Below are positions 12,671-54,830 of a DNA stretch of 64,000 nucleotides, in pieces. The stretch is from Peptococcaceae bacterium 1109 (GTDB lineage: Bacteria; Bacillota; Limnochordia; Darwinibacteriales; Darwinibacteriaceae), in the NCBI GenBank assembly GCA_001028815.1, contig LDJB01000004.1, positions 147,123-211,122 of the forward strand, given 5' to 3'. The notes under the pieces were generated by a model that saw only the letters and a program-made list of their open reading frames with translations, searched no databases and had not been told where the DNA came from. The stretch's first letter is position 1, and each line of letters begins with the position of its first letter. The position numbers were made by a program, and so were the translations under genes.

Positions 12671-13684
12671 CTAACTCCTTTTCCCCAACGAATGCAGGTA
12701 CATCAAAGGAGTGAGGTAAATCCGCTCCAGCATCTCTTTATCCCCCAGCTCGTGGAACAACCCTTTGTCAGGCTTGCCGTTCACTTCAATGATCCACGGT
12801 TTTCCCTGGGGATCCACGATAAAATCAACGCAGATTTCCCCTAGGCTCCCCAGGGAGCCATCAAGCTGGCGGGCAGCTAAGATGGCAAGCTTCCTCATGA
12901 GCTGGTGAATGGGCATGGCTCGCCCTTTGAAAACAGGCAAGACCTTCCGGGGATGATATAGAGCCCGATAGTAGTTAGTAGTAAAGACTCCTGGCGCAGT
13001 CACCCGGCTGAGCTCGCCTGCCACTTCCCACGCGCCGTGGCGGTTCTTCTGCACCACCAGGCGCACATCAAAACGCCCGCCTTCATAAAGCGCCCCTTCC
13101 ACATGGCTTTGCAGCACGTACGGCGTTTCGGCAATGGCGAGGTCCAAGAAGGCAGAGAAAAGCTCCCCTGAAGGAATGGGAAGGGGAATGCTCATACCGC
13201 TAGTTACCAGTACGAAATCGCCCGCCGGTTCCAGCAGGTAAACTCCCCGCCCCGATTGGCCTTTGCGGGGTTTGATCACCCACTTGCCCCCTTGAGCTAA
13301 CAACGATGTAACCTCTTGCCCGATGCAGGCCCGAGCCTCAGGCAAAAAGGGCCTCAGTGGTTCATTGCTATGGAGTAGCTCATGTACCTGGAGCTTGTCA
13401 AAGTGAGTAGTGGTATTGAACACCTTTCCTTTCCCCAGGGCCTCTTCCAACGCGGAGATTACTTCTCGCTGCCCAGGATAGCAGCGGTTGTACACCGCTC
13501 TTGGAAGGGGGTAGACCCCCTCATACCATCGTCCCCAGCTTAGAAGGAGCCCCGAGGCCCTTCTTGTTGTCCAGTCAATGGTGTTGGAAGCAAAGACCAG
13601 CAGGCGGAAGCCGTACTTGCGAGAGAGTTCTTGGTAGTAGGGGAGTCGCTGCGCTTGGTCCATTAGTAAGCCCATTAGAGCCAC
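12671..13684 (-). CDS. YheC/YheD-family ATP-grasp protein (spore-coat-associated family in Bacillus)
   Basis: LPLPRAVYNRC, WVIKPRKGQSGRGVYLL and WIIEVNGKPDKGLF resemble the ATPgrasp_YheCD family. The start is ambiguous (GTG 13684, ATG 13675 or ATG 13663). Confidence 0.75.
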   Translation of the reverse strand: MALMGLLMDQAQRLPYYQELSRKYGFRLLVFASNTIDWTTRRASGLLLSWGRWYEGVYPLPRAVYNRCYPGQREVISALEEALGKGKVFNTTTHFDKLQVHELLHSNEPLRPFLPEARACIGQEVTSLLAQGGKWVIKPRKGQSGRGVYLLEPAGDFVLVTSGMSIPLPIPSGELFSAFLDLAIAETPYVLQSHVEGALYEGGRFDVRLVVQKNRHGAWEVAGELSRVTAPGVFTTNYYRALYHPRKVLPVFKGRAMPIHQLMRKLAILAARQLDGSLGSLGEICVDFIVDPQGKPWIIEVNGKPDKGLFHELGDKEMLERIYLTPLMYLHSLGKRS

Positions 13685-13805
13685 GGGACACCGCTCCTAA
13701 GTAAGGAAAAATAGGAGAGTAGTAGTAAGGCGCCAACCTAGCTTGAACATACCCTAGAACAAGAGCTGAGGTACTCTCAACTACTCGCTCCAAGGAGGTG
13801 GCACC

Positions 13806-13886
13806 GTGAACAATCAGCAGGAAACCTTCATTGTGTTCGTTGCGCTCATTCTCATCGTGGTACTGGCTGTGATTCTCCTTGCCTAG
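13806..13886 (+). CDS. 26-aa hydrophobic micro-protein (tiny single-TM peptide), copy 1
   Basis: SD AAGGAGGTG 6 nt before GTG. Product MNNQQETFIVFVALILIVVLAVILLA. Residues 5-26 are identical to copy 2 despite 9 silent codon differences. A strong terminator follows. It is below the size cutoff of the ORF track. Confidence 0.65.
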   Translation: MNNQQETFIVFVALILIVVLAVILLA

Positions 13887-13892
13887 CGAATC

Positions 13893-13923
13893 AGAGATGG
13901 GTCGGCCCCATCTCTTCTTTTTT
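13893..13923 (+). terminator. Rho-independent terminator of micro-ORF copy 1
   Basis: AGAGATGGG-tcggc-CCCATCTCT followed by tcttttttt. Confidence 0.8.
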
Positions 13924-13958
13924 AGTATATGAGTACCTATAGAATCGGGAACGGGTTC

Positions 13959-13987
13959 CTGATAGCTATTCCCTCTGAGACTAATAT
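13959..13987 (+). promoter_or_regulatory. Promoter-like element for 92-aa ORF copy 1
   Basis: CTGATA-17 nt-TAATAT. Both hexamers are conserved in copy 2 while the spacer sequence is not. Confidence 0.5.
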
Positions 13988-14013
13988 CATAGGAACAAAG
14001 GAGGTGCATCTAA

Positions 14014-14292
14014 ATGGCCGCGGGCAACAATGGTTCTAATCAAACGTTTGACACACTACTGCGGCTGCTTCCGAGCATAATCGCTGCTTACCCCACCTTC
14101 ATGTCTCTGCTCAGTGAACACGGGGGTGAAAAAATCGACTTCACTCAGATAGTGACTGCCCTACCGCAGATCCTGGAAGAGGTGCGCAATGCACGGCCAG
14201 AACAGTTGGAGCAATTGATGACCCATATCGCGGAGACATTTCCAGGCCTCGAAGGGCTACTAATACGAAAAGGAGGGGAGATAGATGGGTAG
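14014..14292 (+). CDS. Hypothetical 92-aa helical protein, paralog A
   Basis: SD AAAGGAGGTG. MAAGNNGSNQTFDTLLRLLPSIIAAYPTFMSLL... About 49/92 positions are identical, without gaps, to the ORF at 14759-15037. No family recognised with confidence. Confidence 0.7.
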   Translation: MAAGNNGSNQTFDTLLRLLPSIIAAYPTFMSLLSEHGGEKIDFTQIVTALPQILEEVRNARPEQLEQLMTHIAETFPGLEGLLIRKGGEIDG

Positions 14293-14380
14293 GCCGGTTC
14301 CTTGCTGTCAACTAGATCCCTTGATGGTGATCTTTATCCTTTTCCTAGTAACATTAGTGATCATCGCGGCGAGAACGTGA
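14285..14380 (+). CDS. 31-aa micro-protein with CC motif and one TM segment (candidate)
   Basis: ATG 14285 overlaps the last codons of paralog A, with AGGAGGGGAG 8 nt upstream. Product MGRPVPCCQLDPLMVIFILFLVTLVIIAART. A strong terminator follows directly. Confidence 0.45.
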   Translation: MGRPVPCCQLDPLMVIFILFLVTLVIIAART

Positions 14381-14385
14381 TGATT

Positions 14386-14422
14386 GCGCCCAGACTAGGT
14401 ATGCCGTAGTCTGGGCGCTTTT
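14386..14422 (+). terminator. Rho-independent terminator after unit 1
   Basis: GCGCCCAGACTA-ggtatgccg-TAGTCTGGGCGC followed by tttt. Confidence 0.75.
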
Positions 14423-14552
14423 CCCATGTGGAGGACTCTTGCTCGAGCGCGTGCAAAATAGGAAGTGGGTAATAAAGCATTTACAGCCATCTGACATACC
14501 TTGAACTGAGAGCGGGCAGACTCTCAACTAACCGCTTCAAGGAGGTGGCAAC

Positions 14553-14633
14553 TTGAACGACAATCAGGAGACCTTCATCGTCTTTGTAGCTTTGATTCTC
14601 ATCGTGGTGCTGGCTGTGATTCTCCTTGCTTAG
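14553..14633 (+). CDS. 26-aa hydrophobic micro-protein, copy 2
   Basis: SD AAGGAGGTG then TTG. Product MNDNQETFIVFVALILIVVLAVILLA. See copy 1 for the silent-substitution argument. Confidence 0.65.
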   Translation: MNDNQETFIVFVALILIVVLAVILLA

Positions 14634-14639
14634 CGAATC

Positions 14640-14672
14640 AGAGATGGGGGTAACACCCCATCTCTTCTCATT
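14640..14672 (+). terminator. Hairpin terminator of micro-ORF copy 2
   Basis: AGAGATGGGG-gtaaca-CCCCATCTCT followed by a weak tctcatt tail. Confidence 0.55.
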
Positions 14673-14704
14673 GTATGCATGGGCCCTGAATAGGGACTCC
14701 ATTC

Positions 14705-14733
14705 CTGATAGCTAAACTAGTGCGGGCTAATAT
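14705..14733 (+). promoter_or_regulatory. Promoter-like element for 92-aa ORF copy 2
   Basis: CTGATA-17 nt-TAATAT, with the same hexamers and spacing as at 13959-13987. Confidence 0.5.
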
Positions 14734-14758
14734 CATAGAGGCAAAGGAGGTGTGTAGG

Positions 14759-15037
14759 ATGGCTGCTAGCAATACCGGATCCAACCAGTCTTTTGACACA
14801 TTGCTGAGACTGCTCCCCGGCTTGGTCGCTTGTTATCCCGCGTTCATGTCCATTCTCGGCGATCAAGGGGTTGATAAGTCCCAGCTAAACCAGCTCACTG
14901 CTGCACTGCCGCAGATACTGGAAAAACTAAGGCAAGCAGAACCAGAAAAGCTGGAGGCGTTGGTCGCCGAAATAACTCAGGCCGTTCCCGGCCTGGAAGA
15001 TGTTCTGCCAAAACAAGAGAGGCGCAAAAGAGGATAG
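14759..15037 (+). CDS. Hypothetical 92-aa helical protein, paralog B
   Basis: ATG 14759 with SD AAAGGAGGTG aligns with the paralog A start; the track start 14720 (GTG) lacks an SD. MAASNTGSNQSFDTLLRLLPGLVACYPAFMSIL... Confidence 0.7.
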   Translation: MAASNTGSNQSFDTLLRLLPGLVACYPAFMSILGDQGVDKSQLNQLTAALPQILEKLRQAEPEKLEALVAEITQAVPGLEDVLPKQERRKRG

Positions 15038-15056
15038 ACCCTCTAAACGAGGATAG

Positions 15057-15088
15057 GGCCCAGCCTAGCAGGTACACTAGACTGGGCC
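15057..15088. terminator. Hairpin between convergent paralog B and alcohol dehydrogenase genes
   Basis: GGCCCAGcCTAG-caggtaca-CTAGaCTGGGCC. Confidence 0.6.
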
Positions 15089-15101
15089 TCATTCTGCGCA
15101 G

Positions 15102-16271
15102 CTATACTGCGAGCCGATAGATTTCTAAGACATCTGCTTCCGTGAGCTTAACGAAGTTACCAACGGTGTGGGTGCCGTTCCCAGTACACTTAGCGGCCAT
15201 TTCTTCCAGACGGTCGTCAGGAATATCCGCATCCGCGAGCCTGGTAGGCAAGCCGATCCGCTTAAAGAACTCTTCCAGGCGGCGAATGCCTTCCAGGGCC
15301 GTTTTCTCTGGATCGTGGTAATCTGGATCTACACCCCACACCCTGGCAGCAAACTGCACAAACCGGGCTACATCGTGCTTATACACATACTTCATCCATG
15401 CTGGGAAGATGATGGCCAGCCCCGCTCCGTGGGCGAGATCGTAAATTCCGCTGAGCTCGTGTTCGATCACATGGGAAGCCCAGTCGCCAATACGGCCAGT
15501 ACCCAACAGGTCGTTATGCGCAATAGTGCCTGCCCACATGATGTTCGCTCGGACATCGTAGTTCTGCGGTTCCTCCAAGGCTCGTGGTGCATGTTTGATA
15601 ATACTCCTCAGGGCCGCTTCACAGAGCTGATCAGTAAGGTCCACATCCCGCACATTGGTGAAATACCTCTCCATAATATGGGCCATCATGTCCGCCACTC
15701 CACAAGCAGTTTGGTAAGGCGGCAGGGTATAGGTCAACTCCGGATTCATGATGGCAAACTTCGGCCGGAGGATCACATGGTCGCAGGAGCGCTTCAGCCA
15801 GCCGTCCTCGTTAGTGATCACCGATCCGGTGCTGGCCTCGCTCCCTGCAGCGGGAATGGTCAAGACCACTCCTAGGGGAAGGGCCTCTTTGGGCTCTGCC
15901 TTGCCAGAATAGAAATCCCACACATCACCCTCATATTGAACACCTAAGGCCATGGCTTTGGCAGAATCGATTACACTCCCGCCCCCTATAGCCAAGATGA
16001 ACCCAATACCCTGTTCCCGGATAAGCTTAATGCCTTCCCGCACTAGGCTGACCCTTGGGTTAGGCTGTGCACCACCCAATTCAATATAGCTTACCCCAGC
16101 GTGCTTTAAGGATTCCTCTACCCGAGCTTTTAGGCCCGTGCGAACAATGTGCCCGCCTCCATAGTGGAGCAGAACCTTATCGGCCCATGCCGCAGTTTCC
16201 ACGCCCACTTGCTCTTCTGCGTTTCGCCCGAAGACAATTTTGGTGCAGTTAGAAAACACAAAATTCTCCAT
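15102..16271 (-). CDS. Iron-containing (group III) alcohol dehydrogenase, butanol-dehydrogenase/YqhD-like
   Basis: MENFVFSNCTKIVFG..., GGGSVIDSAKA and His-rich metal-site blocks (HVIEHELSG..HGAGLA). ATG 16271 with GGAGGT upstream is preferred over the track start 16367. Confidence 0.9.
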   Translation of the reverse strand: MENFVFSNCTKIVFGRNAEEQVGVETAAWADKVLLHYGGGHIVRTGLKARVEESLKHAGVSYIELGGAQPNPRVSLVREGIKLIREQGIGFILAIGGGSVIDSAKAMALGVQYEGDVWDFYSGKAEPKEALPLGVVLTIPAAGSEASTGSVITNEDGWLKRSCDHVILRPKFAIMNPELTYTLPPYQTACGVADMMAHIMERYFTNVRDVDLTDQLCEAALRSIIKHAPRALEEPQNYDVRANIMWAGTIAHNDLLGTGRIGDWASHVIEHELSGIYDLAHGAGLAIIFPAWMKYVYKHDVARFVQFAARVWGVDPDYHDPEKTALEGIRRLEEFFKRIGLPTRLADADIPDDRLEEMAAKCTGNGTHTVGNFVKLTEADVLEIYRLAV

Positions 16272-16398: not shown

Positions 16399-17109
16399 AT
16401 GGGAAGACACATTATTTGCGATGTGGACGGCTGCCTCGTGCCGCCACGGGGACACAAGTGGGATTTCAAGTCTCTGGCTATTCTCGCGGATCAAATCAGC
16501 AAACAGGAGTTTATCTTTACCCTTTGCTCAGGCCGGCCCGCGACATTTATGGAGGCACTAGCCAGACAGCTCACCATCACCAGCCCAATGATCTGCGAAA
16601 ACGGCTCTCTGCTCTTTGATCCCCAGACGAAGAGGGGCATAGTTCATCCCAACATCCCCCAGGAGTTCATGAAAGAGCGCGGCAACATCCACAGGGCAAT
16701 CGAAGAGCTCATTGCGGGAACCGATGCCGTCATCGAACTTGGTAAAGATGTGATGTTCAGCGTCAACTCTACCAATCCGGGACAGTTTGGCGATCTCATG
16801 CCCCGCATCCAGGAAGCTCTCCAAGGAGCTCCTGTGAATATCCAGTTTTCCGGGCGTTCCATTGAAGTAATACCCCGCGGTGTCACTAAGGCTCAGGGAT
16901 TGGCCTTCTGGGCAGAAACCATGGGGGTCCAGATCAGCGACACGGTTTCCATCGGCGATGCTGACAATGACCTGGAAATCCTCAGGGCAGCTGGCCACGC
17001 TGCGGCTCCTGCCAACTGCACCCCTAACGTGCAGGCTATCGCTGAGTACATATCCCCTTACCCTATGGTTGAGGGAGTATTGGACATCGTTGCTCACTAT
17101 ACTGCTTAA
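16399..17109 (+). CDS. HAD-superfamily hydrolase, subfamily IIB (Cof-type phosphatase)
   Basis: DVDGCL nucleophile motif, CSGRP, and SIGDADNDLEIL motif IV. Confidence 0.75.
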   Translation: MGRHIICDVDGCLVPPRGHKWDFKSLAILADQISKQEFIFTLCSGRPATFMEALARQLTITSPMICENGSLLFDPQTKRGIVHPNIPQEFMKERGNIHRAIEELIAGTDAVIELGKDVMFSVNSTNPGQFGDLMPRIQEALQGAPVNIQFSGRSIEVIPRGVTKAQGLAFWAETMGVQISDTVSIGDADNDLEILRAAGHAAAPANCTPNVQAIAEYISPYPMVEGVLDIVAHYTA

Positions 17110-26741: not shown

Positions 26742-27920
26742 TTAAAACGACCCGTTCCCAAAGGTAAGGGCAGCATACACTTGAGTGGCCGTAGCTAGCG
26801 GACTGAACTGGTCCTGGCTATAGAAACGGCGAATCCCAACCTGGGGCTTGATCGACTTCACGCTGGGCAAACTGAGGCTGAAATCGAGGATGCCTGACCT
26901 ATCGGAAAGGGAGCCAATCCACATCCCTGCAGCAGAAAGCTTGGATTTCAGCAGGTTATTCCAGCTGAGCAAGGCAGCTGCCTGGTGTGTACCGCTGTAG
27001 AGATACTGGGCCGCAGTGGTAATGTCATACAAGCCTTCCTCATCCCTATAGCTATACCGGCCCCCCACCGTCCACTGCCACGATAACGGGCTCTCCTCTG
27101 AGCCTGCTTCCCTGTCCACAGTTACTACCCCTTCACCAAACACGCTTACCTCACCTATTGTTGACGAAACGGTTGCCATAAGGTGCAAAGGCCGATCTGC
27201 CCGGTAATAGCCGCCGAATCCTAGCTCTGTTTTCCCCACCACATACTCTGCCTTAGGGGCAATGGCAATATCCCCCAAGCCATCCATATCCTCGAAGAGC
27301 AGGTACAAGTAGTAGTTGTTACTCCCCACTGGGTAGTGGGCCTTGAGGGCAGTGGGCCCCTCCCGAGGCGCCTCTGCATCAAAGGGGTCGATCCGGCCCA
27401 CGTTGATCACATCTGCAGGGCTGAAGAAGTACCCCACGCCCCAGTTGATGGTTTGCTTCCCCGCTCTTAAATACAGCTTGTCCAGAAGAGTATAGTCCAA
27501 GAAAAGCTCATGGAGGGAGAAGTCCGCGGCCTCTGTAGACTTCCCTTCAGGCCAGCTCTCGTACCCGATATTCGCAGCGTACTTGCCTTTCACGAAGGCC
27601 CGCCAAGTGGGATCAGGCCGGAGGTCCATGTAGAGGTCACCGCTTAAACTAACAGCAAACTCATCCCTGGTCACATCCATGGGAAACGGAAAGGCAATCT
27701 GGCTGTACAGGCGGCTCCCGTTAACGTTCAGGCGGTAGGAACCCCCTAGATCGATAGGCTCACCAATGAGCACTGCCTCCACGGGGGAGCCGCCCTCAGG
27801 GCCTTCTTCCAGTTCCTGCAGGATTTCACCGCCAAACAAGAGGTCGAAATCAAAGTCATCAGCGGCTCCAGTCCCACTCAGAAGCACCAGCAGTGCTAAA
27901 ACCAAACAAAGACGCCCCAT
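26742..27920 (-). CDS. Secreted beta-rich protein, probable outer-membrane beta-barrel (DUF1302/alginate-export-like motif)
   Basis: ATG 27920 (GAGGGT upstream) gives the signal peptide MGRLCLVLALLVLLSGTGAADD. There are no hydrophobic helices, the composition is G/Y/S/aromatic-rich, and the motif LRAGKQTINWGVGYFFSPADVIN is present. The C-terminus is ...ALTFGNGSF (terminal Phe). Confidence 0.55.
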   Translation of the reverse strand: MGRLCLVLALLVLLSGTGAADDFDFDLLFGGEILQELEEGPEGGSPVEAVLIGEPIDLGGSYRLNVNGSRLYSQIAFPFPMDVTRDEFAVSLSGDLYMDLRPDPTWRAFVKGKYAANIGYESWPEGKSTEAADFSLHELFLDYTLLDKLYLRAGKQTINWGVGYFFSPADVINVGRIDPFDAEAPREGPTALKAHYPVGSNNYYLYLLFEDMDGLGDIAIAPKAEYVVGKTELGFGGYYRADRPLHLMATVSSTIGEVSVFGEGVVTVDREAGSEESPLSWQWTVGGRYSYRDEEGLYDITTAAQYLYSGTHQAAALLSWNNLLKSKLSAAGMWIGSLSDRSGILDFSLSLPSVKSIKPQVGIRRFYSQDQFSPLATATQVYAALTFGNGSF

Positions 27921-27930
27921 ATTTACCCTC

Positions 27931-28692
27931 CTAGCGGTTTGCCCGTTCCAAGAACGCCTTGGTAAAGACATTATCAGGGAGCTTGGCTGTGGAAATCTCT
28001 GAAAGGGAAATTTGAGTCTTCTTCCCTTCCACAAGCTCATCGATGAAAATCATCTGGGTGGGGATCACTCCGTCCCCCACCTTAGTGTAGCTTGGGAACA
28101 GCCCTGAACGCATCAGCCGCTTGTTGAGGCTGAATTCTTGTGTGCGTAGGACCAGGTTACTGTCTTTGGTGATCCAGAGCTTCGCATAGGGGTATGGTAC
28201 GGTGTCATCCACCGCCTCCAAATCCACTACATAAACGGAGAAGTTCCCCAGGACATCCTCGGTATAATCCACAACCTTGTACGACGAGGAGTAGCTCCAT
28301 TGGCTGAAGTCTGCATTGCGGGCATCGGTGCCCTGGAAGCTCTCCTTTAGGGAAGTGTGGGCAAACTTCCTGCTGGAGGGGTCATAAAACCAGAGGTTGT
28401 CTCCCTCCAAGAGGTACCCCTGGCCCCGCTGAGTGCGGGGCTCCTCAATGAGAAGGAGGAAGCGCTCTCCATCATCCCGGCGGAAATGGCGCACCACAAT
28501 TTTCTCCAAACCTTCCTCTGGATCTTCGATGATCATGGTCAAAACCGCGGACAGGTCAGTCTCTGGAAACGAGGACTGTTCGTCCACTTTCCGCAAGATA
28601 TCTTCAATGATGCTCATGTCTTTCTCCGCTGCTGCGGCCGTCCAACAGCAGGCCAAAATCAGCAGGACAAGCAATGCTTTGTGCTTCCGCAT
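27931..28692 (-). CDS. LolA-like outer-membrane lipoprotein-sorting family protein (secreted, possibly lipidated)
   Basis: Signal peptide MRKHKALLVLLILACC. LLIEEPRTQRGQGYLLEGDNLWFYDPSSRKFAHTSLKESFQGTDARNADF matches my memory of the LolA_like family. Confidence 0.75.
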   Translation of the reverse strand: MRKHKALLVLLILACCWTAAAAEKDMSIIEDILRKVDEQSSFPETDLSAVLTMIIEDPEEGLEKIVVRHFRRDDGERFLLLIEEPRTQRGQGYLLEGDNLWFYDPSSRKFAHTSLKESFQGTDARNADFSQWSYSSSYKVVDYTEDVLGNFSVYVVDLEAVDDTVPYPYAKLWITKDSNLVLRTQEFSLNKRLMRSGLFPSYTKVGDGVIPTQMIFIDELVEGKKTQISLSEISTAKLPDNVFTKAFLERANR

Positions 28693-32346: not shown

Positions 32347-33675
32347 GTGTGCGATACTTTTGTAGCCTTGGGTAGTGCCACGGCCCATGGCGGAGTAATC
32401 TTCGCCAAAAACAGCGACCGTCAGCCAAATGAGCCCCACCTCTTGATCCGCATCCCTAGGCGGAAACATCCCCCTGGGACCAAGCTGAGATGCACCTATA
32501 TTGAAATCGAACAAGCCCGGGAAACGTATGAGGTTTTCCTCCTAAAGCCTTCGTGGATGTGGGGCGCAGAAATGGGTGGCAATGAGTTCGGCCTTCAAAT
32601 CGGGAACGAGGCGGTTTTTACAAAAGAAAAGCAAGGCCCGCCCGCTCTCCTAGGGATGGACATGCTCCGCCTAGCCCTAGAGCGCTGCCGCACCAGTGAA
32701 GAAGCCCTGCATTTCATCATTGAGCTTCTGGAAAAATACGGCCAAGGGGGCAACTGCGGTTACGCCAAGCCCTTCTACTACCACAATGCGTTCCTCATCG
32801 CCGATCCCCGCTCCGCGTGGGTGCTAGAGACAGCGGGGAAGTATTGGGCCGCGCAGCAGGTGAGCGATGTCAAAGCTATATCCAATCGTTTGAGCATCGG
32901 GGCAGACTTTGACCTTGCCCATCCAGGCCTGGTAAGGAATGCGGTGGAAAAGGGATGGTGCCGCTCCGAAGCGGACTTTGACTTTGCAAAGTGCTACTCA
33001 AATCCAGTTGTTACAGCGGCCAGCGGCTCGTTCCATCGCCAGCAGGCAGCAGAGCAAGTGCTGCGCCATAATAAGGGTCGCATCACTGTAGAACTGGCCA
33101 TGGCAATTCTCCGAAGCCACACACCCCGCCATCAGAAGGACCCCTTTGCCCACAGTTCCCTTGGCTCCGTATGCATGCATGGCGGCTTCCTCTTTGGAGA
33201 TCACACTACCGGAAGTTATGTGGCCTCTGTAGCAGAAGGCCAGGTAACGTACTGGGCCACAGGCAGTTCCACTCCCTGCATCGCAGTGTTTAAGCCCTAC
33301 TGGCTCACTGATGCCCCTAATGGCATGGTATTCCCGGAAGCACAGGCCCAAGATTCTTTGTCCTTCTGGATGTTCCGGGAGCGCTTCCACCGGGCTGTCC
33401 TGGAAAACCGCATACCCAATCTGCAACACTACTTGGGAGAACGGGATGCTCTAGAGAAGGAATCCCTGCAAAGGGCCGCGGGGAGCATAGAAGCAGGTGC
33501 GGATGCACTAGTGGATCTTATGAACTACGCAGTAGAAAAAGAAACAGCACTGGTAACCAAAGCCCTGGCGGAGGCGGAGCCAAGGCCCGGCAAACTGCGG
33601 GGTAACCCCTACTTCCGCTGGTACTGGAAGAATCAAACCCGGAAGCTCCTGACTACTCCCCCTCGCCTTGCATGA
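32347..33675 (+). CDS. Ntn-hydrolase, peptidase C69 / secernin-like family
   Basis: GTG start followed directly by Cys (M)CDTFVALGSATAHGGVIFAKNSDRQPNEP, the N-terminal nucleophile arrangement of C69 dipeptidases. Confidence 0.75.
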   Translation: MCDTFVALGSATAHGGVIFAKNSDRQPNEPHLLIRIPRRKHPPGTKLRCTYIEIEQARETYEVFLLKPSWMWGAEMGGNEFGLQIGNEAVFTKEKQGPPALLGMDMLRLALERCRTSEEALHFIIELLEKYGQGGNCGYAKPFYYHNAFLIADPRSAWVLETAGKYWAAQQVSDVKAISNRLSIGADFDLAHPGLVRNAVEKGWCRSEADFDFAKCYSNPVVTAASGSFHRQQAAEQVLRHNKGRITVELAMAILRSHTPRHQKDPFAHSSLGSVCMHGGFLFGDHTTGSYVASVAEGQVTYWATGSSTPCIAVFKPYWLTDAPNGMVFPEAQAQDSLSFWMFRERFHRAVLENRIPNLQHYLGERDALEKESLQRAAGSIEAGADALVDLMNYAVEKETALVTKALAEAEPRPGKLRGNPYFRWYWKNQTRKLLTTPPRLA

Positions 33676-33989: not shown

Positions 33990-34011
33990 AAATACAATAC
34001 AGATCGACTCT

Positions 34012-34240
34012 AAGTGCGATGATGAGGAAGAGTAATCACAGGCTAGCTGACAGAGAAGGGAAGCCAGTGGCTGAAAGCTTCCCCCAGAGGAGCGGTGATG
34101 AAAACCACCTCGGAGCTGCCCGCTGAAAGTGGAGTAAGCGTGGCCGGGGCACCGTTATCTGCATTGAGTGGGCTGCTTAGGCAGCCAATTTGGGTGGAAC
34201 CACGGCAACCTCGTCCCAAGATTTGGGGCGAGGTTTTTTG
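34012..34240 (+). ncRNA. T-box riboswitch leader, threonine specifier (ACC)
   Basis: Stem I GA/K-turn start GCGATGATGAGGAAGAGTA, AGAGA box (34051-34055), specifier-loop GAAAACCA with ACC at 34104-34106 followed by A, and T-box core AATTTGGGTGGAACCACGG (34187-34205). The terminator is CCTCGTCCC-aagattt-GGGGCGAGG + TTTTTT (34209-34239). Confidence 0.85.
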
Positions 34241-34267
34241 CATTCCCTACTGGAAGGAGTTAGAATT

Positions 34268-35977
34268 ATGCAGCGTGAAGAAGCATTGCGGCATACCGCC
34301 GCCCACGTGATGGCCCAAGCAGTAATGCGCCTATGGCCCGATGTAAAGCTGGCCATCGGCCCAGCCATCAAGAACGGTTTCTATTATGATTTTGACCTGG
34401 AGCACCGCCTAACCAGCGACGACTTGGCCCGCATCGAAGCAGAAATGAAAAACATCGCAGCAGAGGGATTCCCCCTTATCCGCGAGGAACTGTCCAAACA
34501 AGAAGCGATAGAGCTGTTTTCCCGTATGAACCAACCGTATAAACTGGAGCTTCTGGAGGAACTGCCTGAAGAGGTTTCTGTATATCGCCAAGGGGAGTTT
34601 GTAGACCTCTGTCAAGGCCCCCATGTGGGGAGCACCGCTGAAGTAAAGCACTTCAAGCTCCAGAGCGTCGCAGGGGCGTACTGGCGAGGGGACTCCTCAA
34701 GGCCCATGCTCCAGCGCATTTACGGCACTGCCTTTGACAGCAAAGAAGAGCTTAAGGATCATCTCAGGCTTCTAGAAGAAGCGGCGAAGCGGGATCACCG
34801 CAAGCTAGGAAAGGAGCTTGACCTGTTTAGCATCCAAGATGAAGGCCCTGGCTTTCCCTTCTTTCACCCCAAAGGCATGGTGATCCGAAACACCCTAGAG
34901 GATTTCTGGCGGGCAGAACACGTAAAGCGGGGCTACCAAGAGGTTAAGACCCCTATCATGCTCCACGAAGACCTGTGGCACCGTTCTGGGCACTGGGACA
35001 ACTATCGGGAAAACATGTACTTCTCCGAAATCGACGAACAGCGCTTTGCCATCAAACCCATGAACTGCCCTGGGGGAATGCTCCTCTATAAGCGTAAGCT
35101 CCATTCCTACCGAGACCTGCCCCTGCGCGTGGGCGAGCTGGGCTTAGTGCACCGCCACGAACTCTCTGGTGCGCTCCACGGGTTGATGCGGGTTAGATGC
35201 TTCACCCAAGATGATGCCCACATCTTTATGCTCCCCAGTCAGATTCAGGCGGAGATCGAAGGGGTTATCGATTTTATCCACGCGGTGTACACCGATGTCT
35301 TCGGATTCCCTTACCACGTGGAGCTGTCCACGAAACCAGAGAATGCCATTGGCGATGATCTCATGTGGGAAAAAGCAACACAGGCCTTGAAAGATGCCCT
35401 GGAAGCCAAAGGCCTGCCCTACGTGATCAACGAAGGGGATGGGGCTTTTTACGGGCCTAAGATCGACTTCCACTTAGAAGACAGTATCGGCCGGACCTGG
35501 CAGTGCGGCACCATCCAACTGGATTTTGCAATGCCCGAGCGCTTTGACCTCACCTATATCGACGAAGACGGCCAGCGCCGCCGCCCGGTCATGCTCCACC
35601 GCGTGATCTTCGGAAGCATTGAAAGGTTCATCGGCATTCTCACCGAACACTACGCAGGGGCATTCCCCGCCTGGCTCGCACCTGTGCAGGTTATGGTGAT
35701 CCCTGTTAGCGATGGGCAGTCGGAATATGCACGAGAGCTCGAGCGAGCGCTCCTGCAAAAAGGCCTACGGGCGGAGAGCGATCTGCGCTCAGAGTCGGTG
35801 GGCAAGAAGATTCGCGCTGCGCAGCTCCAAAAGGTCCCCTATATGGTGATCGTAGGCGAACGGGAGCAGCAAGAAGGAACCATCAGCGTCCGCCACCGCA
35901 AGAGGGGCGACCTAGGTAGTACCAGCCTAGAAACCTTCAGCTCAGAGCTCCAAAAGGAGATCGCTGACCGCCGTTGA
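34268..35977 (+). CDS. thrS: Threonine--tRNA ligase, short form lacking the N-terminal TGS domain
   Basis: Starts at the editing-domain motif ALRHTAAHVMAQAV. Class II motifs are FRAEHVKRGY, RVRCFTQDDAHIF and GAFYGPKIDF, with an anticodon-binding C-terminus. ATG 34268 follows the T-box terminator. Confidence 0.9.
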   Translation: MQREEALRHTAAHVMAQAVMRLWPDVKLAIGPAIKNGFYYDFDLEHRLTSDDLARIEAEMKNIAAEGFPLIREELSKQEAIELFSRMNQPYKLELLEELPEEVSVYRQGEFVDLCQGPHVGSTAEVKHFKLQSVAGAYWRGDSSRPMLQRIYGTAFDSKEELKDHLRLLEEAAKRDHRKLGKELDLFSIQDEGPGFPFFHPKGMVIRNTLEDFWRAEHVKRGYQEVKTPIMLHEDLWHRSGHWDNYRENMYFSEIDEQRFAIKPMNCPGGMLLYKRKLHSYRDLPLRVGELGLVHRHELSGALHGLMRVRCFTQDDAHIFMLPSQIQAEIEGVIDFIHAVYTDVFGFPYHVELSTKPENAIGDDLMWEKATQALKDALEAKGLPYVINEGDGAFYGPKIDFHLEDSIGRTWQCGTIQLDFAMPERFDLTYIDEDGQRRRPVMLHRVIFGSIERFIGILTEHYAGAFPAWLAPVQVMVIPVSDGQSEYARELERALLQKGLRAESDLRSESVGKKIRAAQLQKVPYMVIVGEREQQEGTISVRHRKRGDLGSTSLETFSSELQKEIADRR

Positions 35978-48558: not shown

Positions 48559-49431
48559 TTAGGACCAATTGGAAATTGGCGAGGAAACTAGACTAGATAG
48601 ATATGCCCCCTTCGCTGGAGCGTGGTCAGCGGGTTCAATGCGGGCCCTAGGATATAGGAGGCCTACTACCTCGCAGAAGCGCTTTTGTGCGATCTGGCTT
48701 CCCAACGCTACACAGCCGCAAAGGCCGATCAGGGGGCTAGTATTGCCTAACTGATTGATCATGGCCACCGCACCCTTAATTAAAGCATTTGCTCCTCGGA
48801 GGATTACCTCCAGCGCTACTGGATTGCCCGCCTCAGCCAGCTCATTGATGGCACGAGCCACAAAGTGGGCTCGGCTTCGGCAGGGGCGCTCCCACCACCC
48901 AACAAGGCAGTCACGAAGCTCCTTAACGCCGTAGGCACAAGGTTCTCGTGTGATGCGGCTTAGGGCGTCATTGACGATGTCCATAGCACCACCGCCCCCC
49001 ACCAGCCTGGTGATTGTGCCTGTAGGGTCCCGGCCCAGTACTGAGCCCATGGTATCGGTCAAGATCATGATCTCAGGGCTCCTACCTGGCATACCACGCA
49101 TGGCCGCCTCAGAAAAGCAGTGTACTCTGACATTGGTGGCGTACACAACACTATTGACCAGATCCATTACTTTATCGAACTTGTAGACATACTGGGGCTG
49201 CATAGCCAGGGTTACTGTATGTAGTCGGTCCGTCTCTCTGATCCCAGGTATGGAGCGGACTAGCTTGCTCAAGTTATACCGAGCCGCAGATATCCCAAGA
49301 CGGTGATAATCAAAGGACCTTCCCAGCTGCCGTCCAATAACGTTCCCCTGATCATCCCCAAGAATGGCCATGGATACACCATCATCTTCAGCAATTCCAA
49401 GATACAACCGCTTAGCTGTGGTTTGTCTCAT
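48559..49431 (-). CDS. ASKHA-fold ATPase of the BadF/BadG/BcrA/BcrD (N-acetylglucosamine-kinase-like) family, divergent
   Basis: Length and overall pattern fit (LYLGI....G......[18 protein letters not shown]). The phosphate-1 motif reads GIAEDDGVS instead of GIDGGGT. Confidence 0.45.
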
Positions 49432-51035: not shown

Positions 51036-51998
51036 TCAACTGGTAGGTTCAGCCCCTACAGGGATTCTCTCCAGGAGTTCATCAACCACTGCTTCACTTG
51101 TTACCCCTCGCATGATGCTTTCCGGCCGGAGTAGGATGCGATGGGCTAAGACACTCATCGCGTTTTCCTTAACATCATCAGGGAGCACGAAATCCCGACC
51201 CTGGAGAGCAGCCCGAGCTTGACTTGCCCGCATCAGTGCAAGCGAACCACGGGGGCTCACTCCCAACTGAACTTGGGGATGGGATCGGGTAGCATGTACC
51301 AAGCGGGCAATGTAATCGCGGATAGACTCTTCCACGAATACCTGGGCAACCAAGCGCTGCATGTGCCCAACCTGGCTCAAATCAGTACAGGGAACGATCT
51401 CCTCAATAGGGTGGGCAGTTTGCAAACGCTGCAAGATCTCCTTTTCCTCAGATAAGGTGGGGTATCCCAGACGGATACGCATAAAAAACCGATCGAGCTG
51501 AGCCTCGGGGAGGGGAAATGTTCCCTCGTACTCAATGGGGTTTTGGGTTGCGATCACTAGAAAGGGCCTAGTCAGCTTGTATGTATTCCCGTCCACAGTG
51601 ACCTGCATCTCGCCCATGGCCTCCAGCAAGCTTGACTGGGTGCGGGGCGTAGCTCGGTTGACTTCATCTGCCAGTACCACCTGGGCCATGATGGGCCCAG
51701 GGTGAAACACAAAATCCCCTTCTTTTTGGTTAAACACTGAAACGCCCGTAATGTCTGATGGAAGCAGGTCGGGAGTGCACTGGATCCGGCTGAACTTCCC
51801 CCCGATTGACGTGGCGAGTGCTCTGGCAAGCATGGTCTTGCCCACCCCTGGAACATCCTCAAGCAGCACATGCCCTTCGCTGAGGAGGGCTGTGAGAATC
51901 AAGCGGATTTCCTCGCGCTTACCCACAATTACTTGGCCGATGTTATCTGCAACCTTTTCGCCCAATTCAGCGATGGACGCAATGCTTAGCTCATTCAT
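51036..51998 (-). CDS. MoxR-family AAA+ ATPase
   Basis: HVLLEDVPGVGKTMLARALA (Walker A), VLADEVNRA (Walker B) and VIATQNPIEYEGTFPLPEAQLDRF. Confidence 0.9.
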   Translation of the reverse strand: MNELSIASIAELGEKVADNIGQVIVGKREEIRLILTALLSEGHVLLEDVPGVGKTMLARALATSIGGKFSRIQCTPDLLPSDITGVSVFNQKEGDFVFHPGPIMAQVVLADEVNRATPRTQSSLLEAMGEMQVTVDGNTYKLTRPFLVIATQNPIEYEGTFPLPEAQLDRFFMRIRLGYPTLSEEKEILQRLQTAHPIEEIVPCTDLSQVGHMQRLVAQVFVEESIRDYIARLVHATRSHPQVQLGVSPRGSLALMRASQARAALQGRDFVLPDDVKENAMSVLAHRILLRPESIMRGVTSEAVVDELLERIPVGAEPTS

Positions 51999-53544
51999 TT
52001 TCCTTCCCCCTTACAATACGCTGCAGGCCAGCGGCGATCCGCCTTGCCTGTTCCAAAGCCCGCTCTCGAAGCGTCTTTTCCAGGTCCCGCTGGCTGTAGC
52101 GGGCAAGATGGTAACTCTCTAAGAAATCCCGAATCTCCCCGTCGTGTTCAGGGAGGGAAACTGTCAAGCGCTGCCCAAATTCCGCAGGGGTCTCACCTAC
52201 CCCCGGGGCCAATCCAACAGCTGCGGCGGCCCGCAGGAGCTGACGAAAGGCCCCCCGAATGTCCCGGGAAGCAGCACTCTCACGCCGAGGCCCCCTTGGA
52301 GAAGCCTGAGGAGAAAGTTCCTCAAAGGGAGCAGCCAGATGCCTTGGCAGATTGACGCCCTTCACCCGGCGCAGGTACCGCAGGAAAAAGAGGCCAAGCT
52401 GCCAAACAGAGTCTCGCACAACCAGATAAAGCCGGGCCGCGGCATGGGGCAGGCCCCGGAGCCTCTCAAGCTCGCCCTGGGCAAGGCTCACCACAAGGAA
52501 GCCCAAGAAAACGGCCACAGCCAGCCCTAAGAGGCCAAAGGTGAGCACCATGTAGATGAGAGTCATCACTCCCACCCAAAACGGAGGCTCCGCTCCCTCC
52601 AGCTGCTCCCAAGGAATTTGAGAAGACTGCACTTCACTCTGGCCGCTCACTTCCCTGGGTTCCATAGATGGCGAACCGCTGGTGATGCGCATGAGCAGGC
52701 CCACGAGCCCACCGGCTATGTGATCAAAGGTGATGGGGGAAAAGTCCACAGGCATCAGGCTGATGATGACTGCAACCCCTAGGCATACCACTAACAAGTT
52801 CCTCAGCCAACGGCTGAACAGTTGCAGCGGATAAACCACCTTGATTTGCTGCCAGATTGTGGCTAACCGGTATAAGTAGGCACATCCCAAGACAAGCAGG
52901 CCGCTCGTCAAAGTCAGCAGATGGAATGCCGCGAGAACCAGCTGTTCCCGGCGGGTGACGCCTTGCAGGGCTCCTGTGCGCTGCGCTGCCACTGCCAGGC
53001 ACGCAGTAAGGAGGCCAAAGCCTATGAGCCTTACGAGAAAATACTCGATGGGCAGAGCGGTGTTGGCACCTTTCATGGCCAAGGAATCATATTCCCAGCT
53101 TAAAGTGGAGGCCGCTTGATCCCCTAGTTCATCCCTGACCTTGGCAATGCGGGCCAGGCGATGCCCAAGGCCCCCTGCCACTGCCCACACTAGCAGAGCG
53201 ATGCTGAAAGGGATCAGAAAACCCAGGTCTGGAAAACTACGCCACAGAGCCCACCACGGGTAAGGGACATTGTTTCCCAGGCGCAGTAGGAGGCTGGTCA
53301 GTACTCCGATCATTCCCACTTCCAAGAGGCGCCACGTGAATGGGGTGCGGGGCGATAGGACATAGGCAGAGTAATATACGCTCTCCAGGGCGAAAACGGC
53401 CAAAAGAGCATAGAGCCAGATAGGAAAATGCCAGCCGCTGTAGAACAGGGCGATGTAGTGCCCTACCAATGCTCCCACGGAAAGTGAAAACACTGCACAG
53501 AACACTGGCAGTACAGGTGGCTTGATGTCTAATTCTCTGTTCAA
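51991..53544 (-). CDS. Multi-TM membrane protein with C-terminal DUF4129 domain
   Basis: TTG 53544 (AAGGGGTGG upstream, TTGA overlap with the DUF58 stop) or ATG 53577. Roughly 8 or more TM segments. The C-terminal ETPAEFGQRL....IRDFLESYHLARYS resembles DUF4129. The track start 53775 lies inside the DUF58 gene. Confidence 0.65.
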   Translation of the reverse strand: MNRELDIKPPVLPVFCAVFSLSVGALVGHYIALFYSGWHFPIWLYALLAVFALESVYYSAYVLSPRTPFTWRLLEVGMIGVLTSLLLRLGNNVPYPWWALWRSFPDLGFLIPFSIALLVWAVAGGLGHRLARIAKVRDELGDQAASTLSWEYDSLAMKGANTALPIEYFLVRLIGFGLLTACLAVAAQRTGALQGVTRREQLVLAAFHLLTLTSGLLVLGCAYLYRLATIWQQIKVVYPLQLFSRWLRNLLVVCLGVAVIISLMPVDFSPITFDHIAGGLVGLLMRITSGSPSMEPREVSGQSEVQSSQIPWEQLEGAEPPFWVGVMTLIYMVLTFGLLGLAVAVFLGFLVVSLAQGELERLRGLPHAAARLYLVVRDSVWQLGLFFLRYLRRVKGVNLPRHLAAPFEELSPQASPRGPRRESAASRDIRGAFRQLLRAAAAVGLAPGVGETPAEFGQRLTVSLPEHDGEIRDFLESYHLARYSQRDLEKTLRERALEQARRIAAGLQRIVRGKENE

Positions 53545-54830
53545 GCAGATCCACCCCTTACCTGAGCCTGGGGCCATAACTCTAAGCGCTGTTCTTCCCG
53601 GACGACCCGATGAACGCTCACTCCCCGGGATTCCCGCCCTAAGAGGGCCTGGTGCTCCACTGGGCCGCCCACCACAAGGAAAACAACGCTGAGCCCCAGC
53701 CGCGCCAAGCGATAAGCTTGCTCTACCAGTTCGGGCGTATCGCGGGGTACAACTAAGACAAGCACCGCGCCCCAACTCAAACCGCGCCCCACTTGATCAA
53801 CTAAACCTAGGAAGCGGGGCTCTGGCTGGCACTCCACACCCGCCAAGGCTGTCATGATGTCCATCAACTGCCCCTGGCTCGGGGGAATCACAAGCGCCCC
53901 TGTTTCGCCAGAGAATGTGTCAGGCTGGCCGCTGTCCCCAGCACGCCACTTTTGGTAGCGGGCATAGGTGGCAAATCCGCACGCTTCTCCACTCTGTGCT
54001 GCATGGTGGGCCACCGCGGCCGCTGCCTGGACCGCCAGTTCCTTGTCACTGTACCAGGAGTGTACGTCATAATCCGGTTCATCCATATTTAGGAGAATCA
54101 TCACATTGAGGGTGATGGTGTGTTCGTATTGCTTAACCTGCAAAGCCCCGGTGCGGCCAGTGGCTTTCCAGTGGACGGTCTTAAGGGGATCCCCAGGCTT
54201 GTAAGGACGCACTCCCCCGAGTCTTGAGGGATCTGGATAGATGCGCTGCTGGGCCCTGATGTTCCCTGGAAAAAGCCGGGAGGGGAGGCTCAGAGCCGAG
54301 AAGGGCAAGCGTTCGGGATAGACAACTACTGTGTGATACAGCTCCCGCTCCATAGCAGCGGTACTGATCCCAAAGAGATCGCCGCCTAAAACCCGGATGG
54401 GCCCTACCTCATACACACCGCGGTTGCGGCCGATGAGCCGGCACTCAAGATGTGCCTCTTCCTTGGGGGAAAGAGATACCACCCAGCGGTGGGTGCGCCC
54501 CCCCAGCCCGAGAGGAATGTATTCCACCCCAGAAACCCACGGCAGGGGAAGCCACGAAGCGTTCCGCACTGTAAGGGACAGCACCGCTTCTTCACCGGAG
54601 AAGAGGCGGACAACATCCCGGGGGTACTCAACCATGAGGTTCTCTACCGCGCGGCGCTGCAAGTTGGGAAGAATATAAAAAAGAATCACTGCAACCGCTG
54701 CCAACCCGTAAGCGGCCCGTGTTTCCAACAAGAGAGCAAAGAGAACGAGAATCCAGGTTAAGAAGCGCCACGCTGCCACATCAACACCCCCTGCTTGTAT
54801 GTTCTGCCCTGAGGCAAACGATTCCTTCAC
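53541..54830 (-). CDS. DUF58-domain protein (MoxR-associated, vWA-like)
   Basis: Two N-terminal TM segments and the hallmark GVRPYKPGDPLKTVHWKATGRTGALQVKQYE. Confidence 0.85.
   Translation of the reverse strand: MKESFASGQNIQAGGVDVAAWRFLTWILVLFALLLETRAAYGLAAVAVILFYILPNLQRRAVENLMVEYPRDVVRLFSGEEAVLSLTVRNASWLPLPWVSGVEYIPLGLGGRTHRWVVSLSPKEEAHLECRLIGRNRGVYEVGPIRVLGGDLFGISTAAMERELYHTVVVYPERLPFSALSLPSRLFPGNIRAQQRIYPDPSRLGGVRPYKPGDPLKTVHWKATGRTGALQVKQYEHTITLNVMILLNMDEPDYDVHSWYSDKELAVQAAAAVAHHAAQSGEACGFATYARYQKWRAGDSGQPDTFSGETGALVIPPSQGQLMDIMTALAGVECQPEPRFLGLVDQVGRGLSWGAVLVLVVPRDTPELVEQAYRLARLGLSVVFLVVGGPVEHQALLGRESRGVSVHRVVREEQRLELWPQAQVRGGSA

Follow-up and report, generated by a model that had tools for sequence, protein, structure and literature searches.

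The window analysed here is a stretch of 64,000 nucleotides (nt) of Peptococcaceae bacterium 1109 (contig LDJB01000004.1, positions 147,123 to 211,122). At its positions 13700-15100 it carries a diverged tandem duplication, in which families of direct repeats lie 746-747 nt apart. The duplication is bounded by a minus-strand gene for an ATP-grasp ligase of the YheC/D family (12671-13684), whose start is at 13684, and by a minus-strand Fe-alcohol-dehydrogenase gene, whose end is at 15102. Between them there are five plus-strand open reading frames (ORFs) with a strong Shine-Dalgarno (SD) sequence: two copies of a 26-codon micro-ORF (A1 and A2), two genes for 92-residue proteins (P92-1 and P92-2, members of a family called P9x below), and a 31-codon micro-ORF (B). 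The locus is a conserved small-protein cassette rather than an accidental pair of ORFs, and there is very little doubt that A, B and P9x are real translated genes which form a module with the ATP-grasp gene. An earlier reading of the letters by a model (the original prediction) had pointed to the duplication. Its 26-codon and 92-codon ORFs, their SD sequences and their start codons are all present where it had placed them, and its repeat period of 747 bp is borne out.

Each unit has the same order: a promoter-like element, a 5' stem-loop, an SD sequence, the 26-codon ORF A, a stem-loop terminator, a second promoter-like element, another SD sequence and a 92-codon P92 gene. In unit 1 (all features on the plus strand), the upstream motif AAAATAGGA at 13708-13716, which has the family consensus AAAAYRGGA, is followed by the -10-like element CATACCCTA of the A1 promoter at 13748-13756, of the sigma-K/E type CATAnnnTA. 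A stem-loop with the arms AGAG and CTCT, found with RNAalifold, is located in the 5' untranslated region at 13762-13777. A1 itself occupies 13806-13886, with a GTG start and the SD sequence AAGGAGGTGG, and encodes the peptide MNNQQETFIVFVALILIVVLAVILLA. It is divergent from the ATP-grasp gene. After it comes a stem-loop with the U-rich tail UCUUUUUU (13893-13923), which was recognised as an intrinsic terminator by terminator scan, folding and covariation. The P92-1 promoter-like element CTGATA-17 nt-TAATAT was located by alignment at 13959-13987, with GAATCGGGAAC upstream of it at 13942-13952, and P92-1, the first P9x paralogue, is at 14014-14292 with the SD sequence AAAGGAGGTG. B (14285-14380, ATG start, peptide MGRPVPCCQLDPLMVIFILFLVTLVIIAART) has the SD sequence GGAGGGGAG just upstream, and a terminator after B closes the unit at 14386-14422, where a fold with the conserved arms GCCCAGACTAG and CTAGTCTGGGC is followed by UUUU.

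In unit 2, also on the plus strand, the A2 promoter region AAAATAGGA ... CATACCTTG was found at 14455-14503 by anchored alignment and by the composite pattern. It precedes a 5' stem-loop with the arms GAGAG and CTCTC (14508-14525; RNAalifold and fold energy), A2 (14553-14633, TTG start, SD sequence AAGGAGGTGG, peptide MNDNQETFIVFVALILIVVLAVILLA), and a stem-loop with a weak U tail that begins 7 nt past the A2 stop (14640-14665; folding and covariation). The P92-2 promoter-like element, again CTGATA-17 nt-TAATAT, is at 14705-14733 by sequence and alignment. P92-2, the second P9x paralogue, has the SD sequence AAAGGAGGTG and a basic C-terminal tail (14759-15037), and is followed by a terminator-like stem-loop homologous to the one after B (15056-15089; folding and alignment). 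The longest direct repeat between the units is 155 nt with 81% identity, and spans the A gene together with its 5' leader and stem-loop. P92-1 and P92-2 share 47 of 86 residues (55%) without gaps, in line with the earlier estimate of about one half. Pairwise alignment puts the length difference between the units at about 75 nt, unit 2 being the shorter, and the missing 75-nt block is the B ORF.

Related loci were gathered in two ways, by a search with P92 and by an independent scan of metagenome contigs seeded by the A peptide. Both converge on 18 locus variants, and a 19th (L041) was reached through the ATP-grasp protein. The loci were annotated with a P9x hidden Markov model, with phmmer for the ATP-grasp protein, and with peptide patterns for A and B. 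The 19 variants come from digester, biogas and fermentation metagenomes and from metagenome-assembled genomes (MAGs), and they show two main layouts, with L041 as a more divergent locus. Type I is found in the window and five other lineages and can be written ATPgrasp(-) | A P B | A P; type II is found in twelve lineages and can be written [Px B P] | ATPgrasp(-) | [A P]. In L041, the ATP-grasp protein is 34% identical, and the locus carries a 26-residue A-like peptide MTGAQQTFLIFVALVIVFALAIILLA, a B-like peptide and a P9x-like protein. Throughout, A is followed by a P9x gene and B is preceded by one. On every related contig that is long enough, the YheC/D ATP-grasp gene is directly divergent from A, so the gene which the original prediction had mentioned as a divergent neighbour is the only neighbour that never changes. 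Clustering of the P9x proteins groups the type I P92 paralogues together against the type II paralogues. Therefore, the tandem duplication is real, ancestral to the type I clade and specific to it.

The cassette is confined to one poorly known lineage of uncultured, Limnochordia-like MAGs. Cluster mates at 90% identity or more are named 'YheC/YheD family protein [Limnochordia bacterium]' and 'hypothetical protein [Limnochordia bacterium]' at NCBI, and the sole species representative in the genome collection is a 'Bacillota bacterium' MAG; the scan of that collection used type I-specific patterns and under-counts type II genomes. The description of the locus as unannotated is partly correct. 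The P92 genes are publicly called as hypothetical proteins, the 26-residue gene is called on one JGI contig, and B on some ENA and Logan contigs (B is called as a gene in L005, L006 and L008).

We now turn to the evidence for selection on A. Between A1 and A2, codons 6, 9, 10, 11, 12, 13, 14, 19 and 26 differ silently and amino-acid changes are found only at codons 3 and 4. This reproduces exactly the nine silent codons and the changes limited to the N-terminus that were reported before. For 10 A genes of five lineages, the variable columns in codons 6-26 number 4, 0 and 16 at codon positions 1, 2 and 3, respectively. Across all loci, the core of A (codons 5-26) has 25 distinct DNA sequences that encode only 5 peptides, and these differ just by I/V/L exchanges at four positions. 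The corresponding numbers of variable columns are 9, 0 and 20, and the position-1 changes are Leu CTN/TTR and Ile/Val. The pooled ratio of nonsynonymous to synonymous differences per site (pN/pS) is 0.083 and pairwise pS reaches 0.97, a signal of purifying selection on the peptide far beyond what the two paralogues, from which it had been proposed, can show. The start codon is GTG, TTG or ATG at an identical position, and the length of the product is fixed at 26 residues. An antisense 'shadow' ORF does not fit this pattern, as its first codon positions would fall on the most variable sites, and it would run through stem-loops in which the length of the loop differs by non-multiples of three. 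Frameshifts or stops in orthologous micro-ORFs would have told against a selected peptide, but the 19 locus variants keep all of the ORFs intact. In one contig of 1.4x coverage (L009, ERZ2647865) there are frameshifts in the ATP-grasp gene, A1 and B; the same genes are intact in the near-identical L014, L022 and L023, and these frameshifts look like assembly errors rather than pseudogenes.

The A peptide consists of a six-residue polar head (MNNQQE or MNDNQE) and 20 uninterrupted hydrophobic residues that run to the C-terminus. It has neither Gly nor Pro, its sole charged residue is E6 (Q in L041), and its C-terminal -ILLA is invariant. From this composition, A is predicted to be a single-pass membrane micro-protein, and the same is predicted for B. 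The core of A is near-invariant between lineages whose P9x proteins are only 13-33% identical and whose ATP-grasp proteins are about 40% identical. Since the core is fixed while these neighbours have diverged, its constraint exceeds the need of a generic membrane anchor. Simple anchoring hardly accounts for a transmembrane helix whose 20 residues are so nearly invariant, and this points to a tightly packed assembly or to recognition by an enzyme. A and B are also a clean and statistically strong example of real genes that are too short for the usual annotation cut-off, and few sequences of the locus are as conserved as A.

B, the third micro-ORF, was absent from the original prediction, and it is also absent from unit 2. 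Its ATG overlaps the P92-1 stop by 8 nt (ATGGGTAG), and its translation may be coupled to that of P92-1 through this overlap. The peptide has the head MGRPVPCCQLDP, with an invariant Cys-Cys pair between Pro and Asp-Pro, then a transmembrane helix and 2-4 C-terminal residues. The pattern GRP-x(1-3)-CC-x-x-DP and then IFILFLV is kept in all type I and type II lineages, while the B-like peptide of L041 is diverged (GKRCCKLDD and a transmembrane segment).

The P9x proteins have about 90 residues and are punctuated by prolines, with three h-x-x-(L/A/V)-P units about 26-31 residues apart. Their C-terminal tails are not conserved. Orthologues of P92-1 are 68-79% identical. A sequence search with P92 found 9 relatives among 5.8 billion clustered proteins and a second, profile-based search of this set found 22 members of the P9x family; among 1.84 billion representative proteins, the P9x profile had 17 hits at E <= 0.001, several of them spurious. 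AlphaFold2 gave an all-helical P92 with 4 helices, at a mean confidence (pLDDT) of 55 with 8 sequences and 60 with 26 sequences, and predicted template-modelling scores (pTM) of 0.28 and 0.33. A Foldseek comparison of these models with PDB gave no match at E <= 0.001. When the P9x profile was compared with PDB sequences, TAL-effector repeats appeared with a summed E-value of 2.8e-29 through the motif Q-x-h-E/D-x-h-x-x-LLP-x-L. We rejected this homology, as single repeats contribute just 1-6 bits with independent E-values of 10^2-10^3 and the resemblance is only one of the motif xxLLPxL.

None of the small products belongs to a family in the libraries searched. With Pfam, NCBIfam, PADLOC and PHROGs, all of them gave chance-level hits only, the best being HEC-01A at 19 bits for P92-2, and against Pfam-A and NCBIfam both P92-1 and P92-2 had sub-threshold chance hits of at most 15 bits to unrelated families. 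The search of PDB sequences with A and with B returned nothing, and an Rfam scan of the cassette region at E <= 1 gave no match. YjcZ peptides have a Gly-rich segment at the N-terminus before their transmembrane helix. The membership in the YjcZ/tiny_TM_bacill family that had been proposed for the micro-peptide is not upheld, with no such hit for A1, A2 or B in hmmscan at E <= 1 against Pfam-A and NCBIfam and with no glycine in A; the companion proposal for the 92-residue proteins failed in the same scan, which showed no SpoVIF match for P92-1 or P92-2. A, B and P9x are three new families without a match in Pfam, NCBIfam or PDB. As far as the searched libraries show, these families, the pairing with P9x and the permanent link to YheC/D are undescribed. 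Bacterial micro-membrane proteins as a kind are already familiar; it is these families that are new.

The cassette also carries conserved RNA structures. The 5' stem-loop of A has a 6-bp stem with three compensatory pairs in the RNAalifold analysis of 23 units, for example GC in 12 against AU in 11. The stem-loop after A has a 10-bp consensus stem with 4 covarying pairs in 24 units, and it starts 7-9 nt past the A stop in every lineage. Fold energies in the window were compared with those of 200 shuffles, and four stem-loops beat all of them: those after A1 (13893-13915, -14.2 kcal/mol, 7 nt past the stop, with the tail UCUUUUUU), after B (-26.3 kcal/mol, then UUUU), after A2 (-19.3 kcal/mol, z -5.9) and after P92-2 (-25.4 kcal/mol, with a weak U tract). 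The hairpin terminators that had been predicted after the two A copies are therefore confirmed as stem-loops, with a weaker U tail after A2, which is probably a leaky terminator. The G+C-rich stem-loop and U tract of an intrinsic terminator are both present after A1 and B. In type I, where the stem-loop should terminate transcription, the first A copy has the strongest U tract. The tail after A in type II is C/U-rich and has no U tract, and so the role of the conserved hairpin may be partial termination or stabilisation of the 3' end. In unit 2 of L012 and L015, only 68-78 nt separate the A stop from the P9x start; P9x must be expressed there by read-through from the A promoter.

Two other readings of these sequences were tried and rejected. 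Read-through of the stop codon, with the stem-loop after UAG acting like a PYLIS element, is contradicted by the use of TAA in two lineages and by loop lengths that differ by non-multiples of 3. An anti-SD role for CTCCTT at the 3' end of the A ORF fails as the type II Leu codons there are TTG and CTT, or CTC and TTG. Apart from these, in L017, L019, L027, L028, L035 and other type II loci the tail of the stem-loop reads CCUCCUU(U)C, which is complementary to the P9x SD sequence 40-90 nt downstream and which we take to be identical to the anti-SD end of 16S rRNA. Judging from this complementarity, an alternative pairing could mask the P9x ribosome-binding site in type II. Also, in the window the SD sequence of A2 pairs into a 7-bp hairpin CCGCUUC/GAGGUGG at 14531-14547 (+), which could damp the translation of A2 and which is not clearly conserved in type II.

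For the promoters of A, 29 distinct A units were aligned on the anchor CATAnnnT[AG]. The -10-like element CATANNNT[AG] is present in 29 of the 29 units, 47-53 nt before the start codon, and AAAAYRGGA is found 40-43 nt before it. In the 64-kb window, the composite AAAAYRGGA-N26-34-CATANNNTR occurs only at the two A genes, with 0 occurrences expected. The upstream motif is shared with other genes of the cassette, and is also found before P92-1 in type I, before the P9x-like gene of L041 and before the Px genes of type II, 40-43 nt ahead of a -10-like element. We argue from this common motif that the small cassette genes are co-regulated. In Bacillus subtilis the sigma-K consensus is KCACM at -35 and GCATANNNTA at -10 (PMC3416734) with a gap of 14-16 nt (PMC517825), and that of sigma-E is TYATATTT and KCATANANTN (PMC3416734). 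The -10 element of the A units agrees with GCATANNNTA, and one type II clade also has TCACC or GCACC as -35 element with a gap of 14 nt (TCACC-14-TCATAGTGTA), which is a near-perfect match to sigma-K. These elements suggest that the A promoter is of mother-cell type and may depend on sigma-K. The upstream motif was further compared with the GerE core consensus RWWTRGGY (PMC2695774), of which AAAATAGGA matches 7 of 8 positions, and this possible link to GerE is a lead only. A SpoIIID box (WWRRACAR) was discarded, as the match GGACAG is limited to unit 1 of some type I lineages and is not general.

The promoter-like element of P92-1 is conserved in unit 1 of all type I lineages, and it scores 8/12 against the sigma-70 consensus, below the scan threshold of 9/12. 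That of P92-2 is conserved in 4 of 5 lineages, and the spacer in L012 and L015 is too short for a promoter. The original description of each unit as 'terminator + promoter' is thus reasonable for the lineage of the window, where CTGATA-17-TAATAT precedes both P92 genes, and it does not extend to every lineage. Between the A stem-loop and P9x, unit 1 of type I and almost every type II locus have another conserved pair of motifs, TATATGA and, 13-16 nt on, AAA(A/C)CGG(G/T)AA(C/T) (window 13929-13952; spacers of L017-L036). On the minus strand, the TATATGA motif often reads CATATACTA. Readings of the pair TATATGA...AAACGGGAAC with sigma-F, sigma-G, sigma-B and sigma-E were all tried; none fitted, and no promoter or operator model was found.

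The ATP-grasp gene matches PF14398 (ATPgrasp_YheCD) with an E-value of 5.5e-46 and 157.3 bits against a cutoff of 26.8, over profile positions 3-255 of 255, and its product also has weak TTL (tubulin tyrosine ligase) and RimK-like profile hits. We know of no identified substrate for the YheC/D ATP-grasp family of spore coats. The cassette gives this family fixed genetic partners, which are obvious candidates for its substrates, anchors or regulators. YheC/D proteins are listed among the conserved coat enzymes in a paper (bioRxiv 10.1101/2022.02.25.481979) which also states that sigma-K is encoded in the genomes of all spore-formers; it counts Limnochorda pilosa, the cultured member of the class, among these and names it as a carrier of dpaAB. 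YheD is a SpoIVA-dependent protein of the basement layer of the coat and forms rings around the forespore (PMC7725329). The sporulation setting proposed earlier is plausible in its mother-cell form by virtue of the -10 motif, the ATP-grasp family and the Limnochordia cluster mates.

We propose that the cassette encodes a membrane-anchor and adaptor module, co-regulated and active late in the mother cell, that works with the ATP-grasp ligase; taken as a whole, we would give this model a probability of about one half. Each A would be transcribed from its own promoter, and the mRNA would start near the short stem-loop if the -10 element is used. With a strong SD sequence and, in the lineage of the window, a U-tailed stem-loop after the stop codon that should end most transcripts, A would be made as a short and abundant message, and P92 would be expressed by read-through and from the second, weaker promoter. 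A and B would then insert into the membrane as anchors or assembly partners, and the soluble P9x proteins would pair with them as adaptors. This pairing is suggested by the gene order, which pairs A with the following P9x and B with the preceding one. Together, A, B and P9x may position or regulate the ATP-grasp ligase, the likeliest site being the outer forespore membrane and the basement layer of the coat in late sporulation, as for B. subtilis YheD. Among the readings offered by the original prediction, its alternative of micro-protein regulators of a membrane complex fits the evidence best.

Several observations weigh against this model. A scan of 30 other genes of the window found no sporulation gene. 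The -35 element fits sigma-K in one type II clade only and is absent in the lineage of the window, and the GerE-like match always misses one core position, two in the A promoters of type II. In type II, the neighbours are genes for a superoxide dismutase (SOD) and a pyridine-nucleotide oxidoreductase, which suit a role in oxidative stress as well as a role in the coat. A Paenibacillus YheC/D paralogue has no cassette, which is thus not a general attribute of the enzyme family. Finally, the P9x models are of low confidence (pLDDT 55-60), and no statement on a binding surface is possible from them.

The rival that survives best is compatible with the anchor model. It holds that A, B or P9x are substrates of the adjacent ligase, which would add amino acids to a carboxylate, at the C-terminus or on a Glu or Asp side chain, or form a cross-link, as in the precursor-enzyme systems of RimK and S6, TTL and tubulin, or the ribosomally synthesised and post-translationally modified peptides (RiPPs). 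We consider it unlikely, and yet a good number of observations can be read in this way. The ATP-grasp gene is the sole invariant neighbour, several small products have more than one paralogue, which is often seen with precursor genes, and the conservation of A over its whole length would suit recognition by an enzyme. The enzyme has its weak TTL and RimK-like hits, and the invariant C-terminal -ILLA of A is a possible ligation site. However, the sole acidic residue of A, E6, is Gln in L041, the C-terminal tails of P9x are not conserved, no protease or exporter is conserved in the neighbourhood of the loci, and graspetide ligases probably belong to a different ATP-grasp subgroup. A graspetide precursor, which has a core motif of Thr, Ser or Lys with Asp or Glu, was rejected for A, as A has just E6 and T7 and the former is Q in L041. 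That the YheC/D ligase acts in particular on the -ILLA carboxylate of A, by extension or by cross-linking at the membrane surface, or on B or P9x, is to us an improbable proposal. If it were true, the spore-coat ATP-grasp family would gain its first defined substrates or cofactors in A, B and P9x, which would also make up a new class of enzymatically modified membrane micro-proteins.

Another rival places the cassette in a vegetative membrane or oxidative-stress module with no link to sporulation, where the CATA-type -10 element belongs to a lineage-specific promoter or sigma factor. In its favour, of 12 type II loci, 9 have an Fe/Mn SOD gene and 7 a Pyr_redox_2 gene, which lie immediately before Px-B-P and about 1.4-2.1 kb upstream of A (e.g. 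L019 2875-3501), and L019 has two AhpC/peroxiredoxin genes. MsrA is encoded three genes away from the cassette in type I, B has its conserved Cys-Cys pair, and the window contributes no sporulation genes. Against it, SOD and peroxiredoxin themselves occur as proteins of the spore coat in some Bacillota. In addition, the -10 element, and in one clade the -35 element, is close to sigma-K, and the enzyme family is known only from spore coats. We regard this rival as rather unlikely.

Far less probable is that A is a type I toxin-like membrane peptide under the control of an antisense RNA, its tandem copies being comparable with the LDR or SIB repeats of E. coli; type I toxin-like peptides had been among the alternatives of the original prediction. 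A is small, very hydrophobic and located in tandem repeat units, and a minus-strand motif like CATA(T/C)A(C/A)(T/A), just 3' of the A stem-loop in many lineages, could drive an antisense RNA; in B. subtilis loci of the txpA/ratA type, the antisense RNA overlaps at the 3' side. Nevertheless, about half of the lineages lack this motif or have it in degenerate form, and there is no conserved antisense terminator. A core that is near-invariant while its neighbours are at 13-33% identity, and a fixed synteny with P9x and ATP-grasp genes, are atypical of toxin-antitoxin loci. No match to a Pfam toxin, PADLOC or PHROG was found, and the strong SD sequence of A faces no conserved anti-SD, the CTCCTT stretch in the ORF being lineage-specific. 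Deep conservation, protein-coding partners in fixed synteny and the fact that no antisense promoter or terminator is consistently present thus disfavour the toxin.

The least probable rival, in which A is a mere leader peptide whose translation modulates the terminator 7-9 nt downstream and so controls P9x, accords with the fixed spacing of the stem-loop in all lineages and with the read-through that P9x needs in unit 2 of L015 and L012, but a functionless peptide would not keep 22 of 22 core residues fixed bar I/V/L swaps with synonymous sites near saturation (in leader peptides the individual residues are not conserved), the cassette has in B another conserved membrane peptide, for which no such downstream terminator-gene arrangement exists, and P92-1 has its own promoter-like element. 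Attenuation could still act as an additional layer of control.

Some further genes near the cassette and elsewhere in the window were recorded. All type I loci have, two genes away from the cassette, a gene for a Cof-type HAD hydrolase (PF08282 in the syntenic loci), at 16399-17109 (+) in the window; YhaX, a basement-layer coat protein of B. subtilis, is also a HAD-family hydrolase (PMC7725329). In six type II loci, a gene for a protein of about 525-547 residues without a Pfam match is directly downstream of A-P9x (L019 6035-7648 (-), L027 3645-5222, L030 5045-6667, L033 2594-4165, L035 4523-6109 and L036 5033-6673); the L019 product, the sole translation inspected, starts with a hydrophobic stretch like a signal peptide. 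The window has a T-box leader at 34010-34221 (+) (Rfam RF00230, 121 bits) before a class II tRNA synthetase gene with threonyl-tRNA synthetase domains (34190-35977), and together with a pyruvate:ferredoxin oxidoreductase gene it is consistent with an anaerobic member of the Bacillota. Four window ORFs of 290-447 residues are without a Pfam match at E <= 1e-5 (26742-28040 (-), 32347-33675 (+), 48559-49431 (-) and 56294-57637 (-)). A MoxR-type AAA ATPase gene (AAA_3), a DUF4129 gene and a further ORF at 51036-54830 (-) look like a MoxR-associated cluster.

When compared with known systems, the cassette resembles several without belonging to any of them. Like the yjcZ-spoVIF pair, it places genes for tiny hydrophobic Bacillota peptides beside a small helical protein, which there is a sporulation protein, but the head of A is not rich in Gly, P92 and SpoVIF are unrelated, and the conserved partner of the cassette is the ATP-grasp gene. 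The type I toxin repeat loci ldr/rdl (LDR repeats) and ibs/sib of E. coli and txpA/ratA of B. subtilis share with the cassette the tandem direct repeats, each with a short hydrophobic ORF that has a promoter and a terminator to itself. In contrast, the unit of the cassette adds a conserved protein gene and strict purifying selection on the peptide over a deep divergence, and it has no consistent antisense gene. Pulmonary surfactant protein C (SP-C) has, like B, Pro-Cys-Cys directly before a very hydrophobic helix of Val, Ile and Leu. It is eukaryotic and cleaved from a precursor, and its Cys pair is palmitoylated, and no homology is implied.

SpoVM, the B. subtilis mother-cell peptide that anchors the basement layer of the coat to the outer forespore membrane, is like A a small membrane-associated product of 26 residues. 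A likewise has a promoter of mother-cell type, is a candidate membrane anchor, and is linked to a homologue of the basement-layer protein YheD. The differences are that the helix of SpoVM is amphipathic and lies at the membrane surface, whereas that of A is hydrophobic throughout residues 7-26 and would span the membrane, that there is no Pfam or NCBIfam match between the two, and that the partner of SpoVM is SpoIVA and not an ATP-grasp enzyme. KdpF, CydX, AcrZ, MgtS and PgsE/CapE are also single-transmembrane proteins of less than 50 residues, encoded beside a dedicated larger partner and often missed by annotation. Unlike these regulators, the cassette has two micro-proteins with 2-3 soluble paralogues and a soluble ATP-grasp enzyme, no membrane complex is encoded near it, and its sequence is unusually strictly conserved. 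By analogy, the cassette would work most like small membrane proteins dedicated to a larger machine, such as SpoVM, KdpF, CydX and PgsE, without membership in any of their families.

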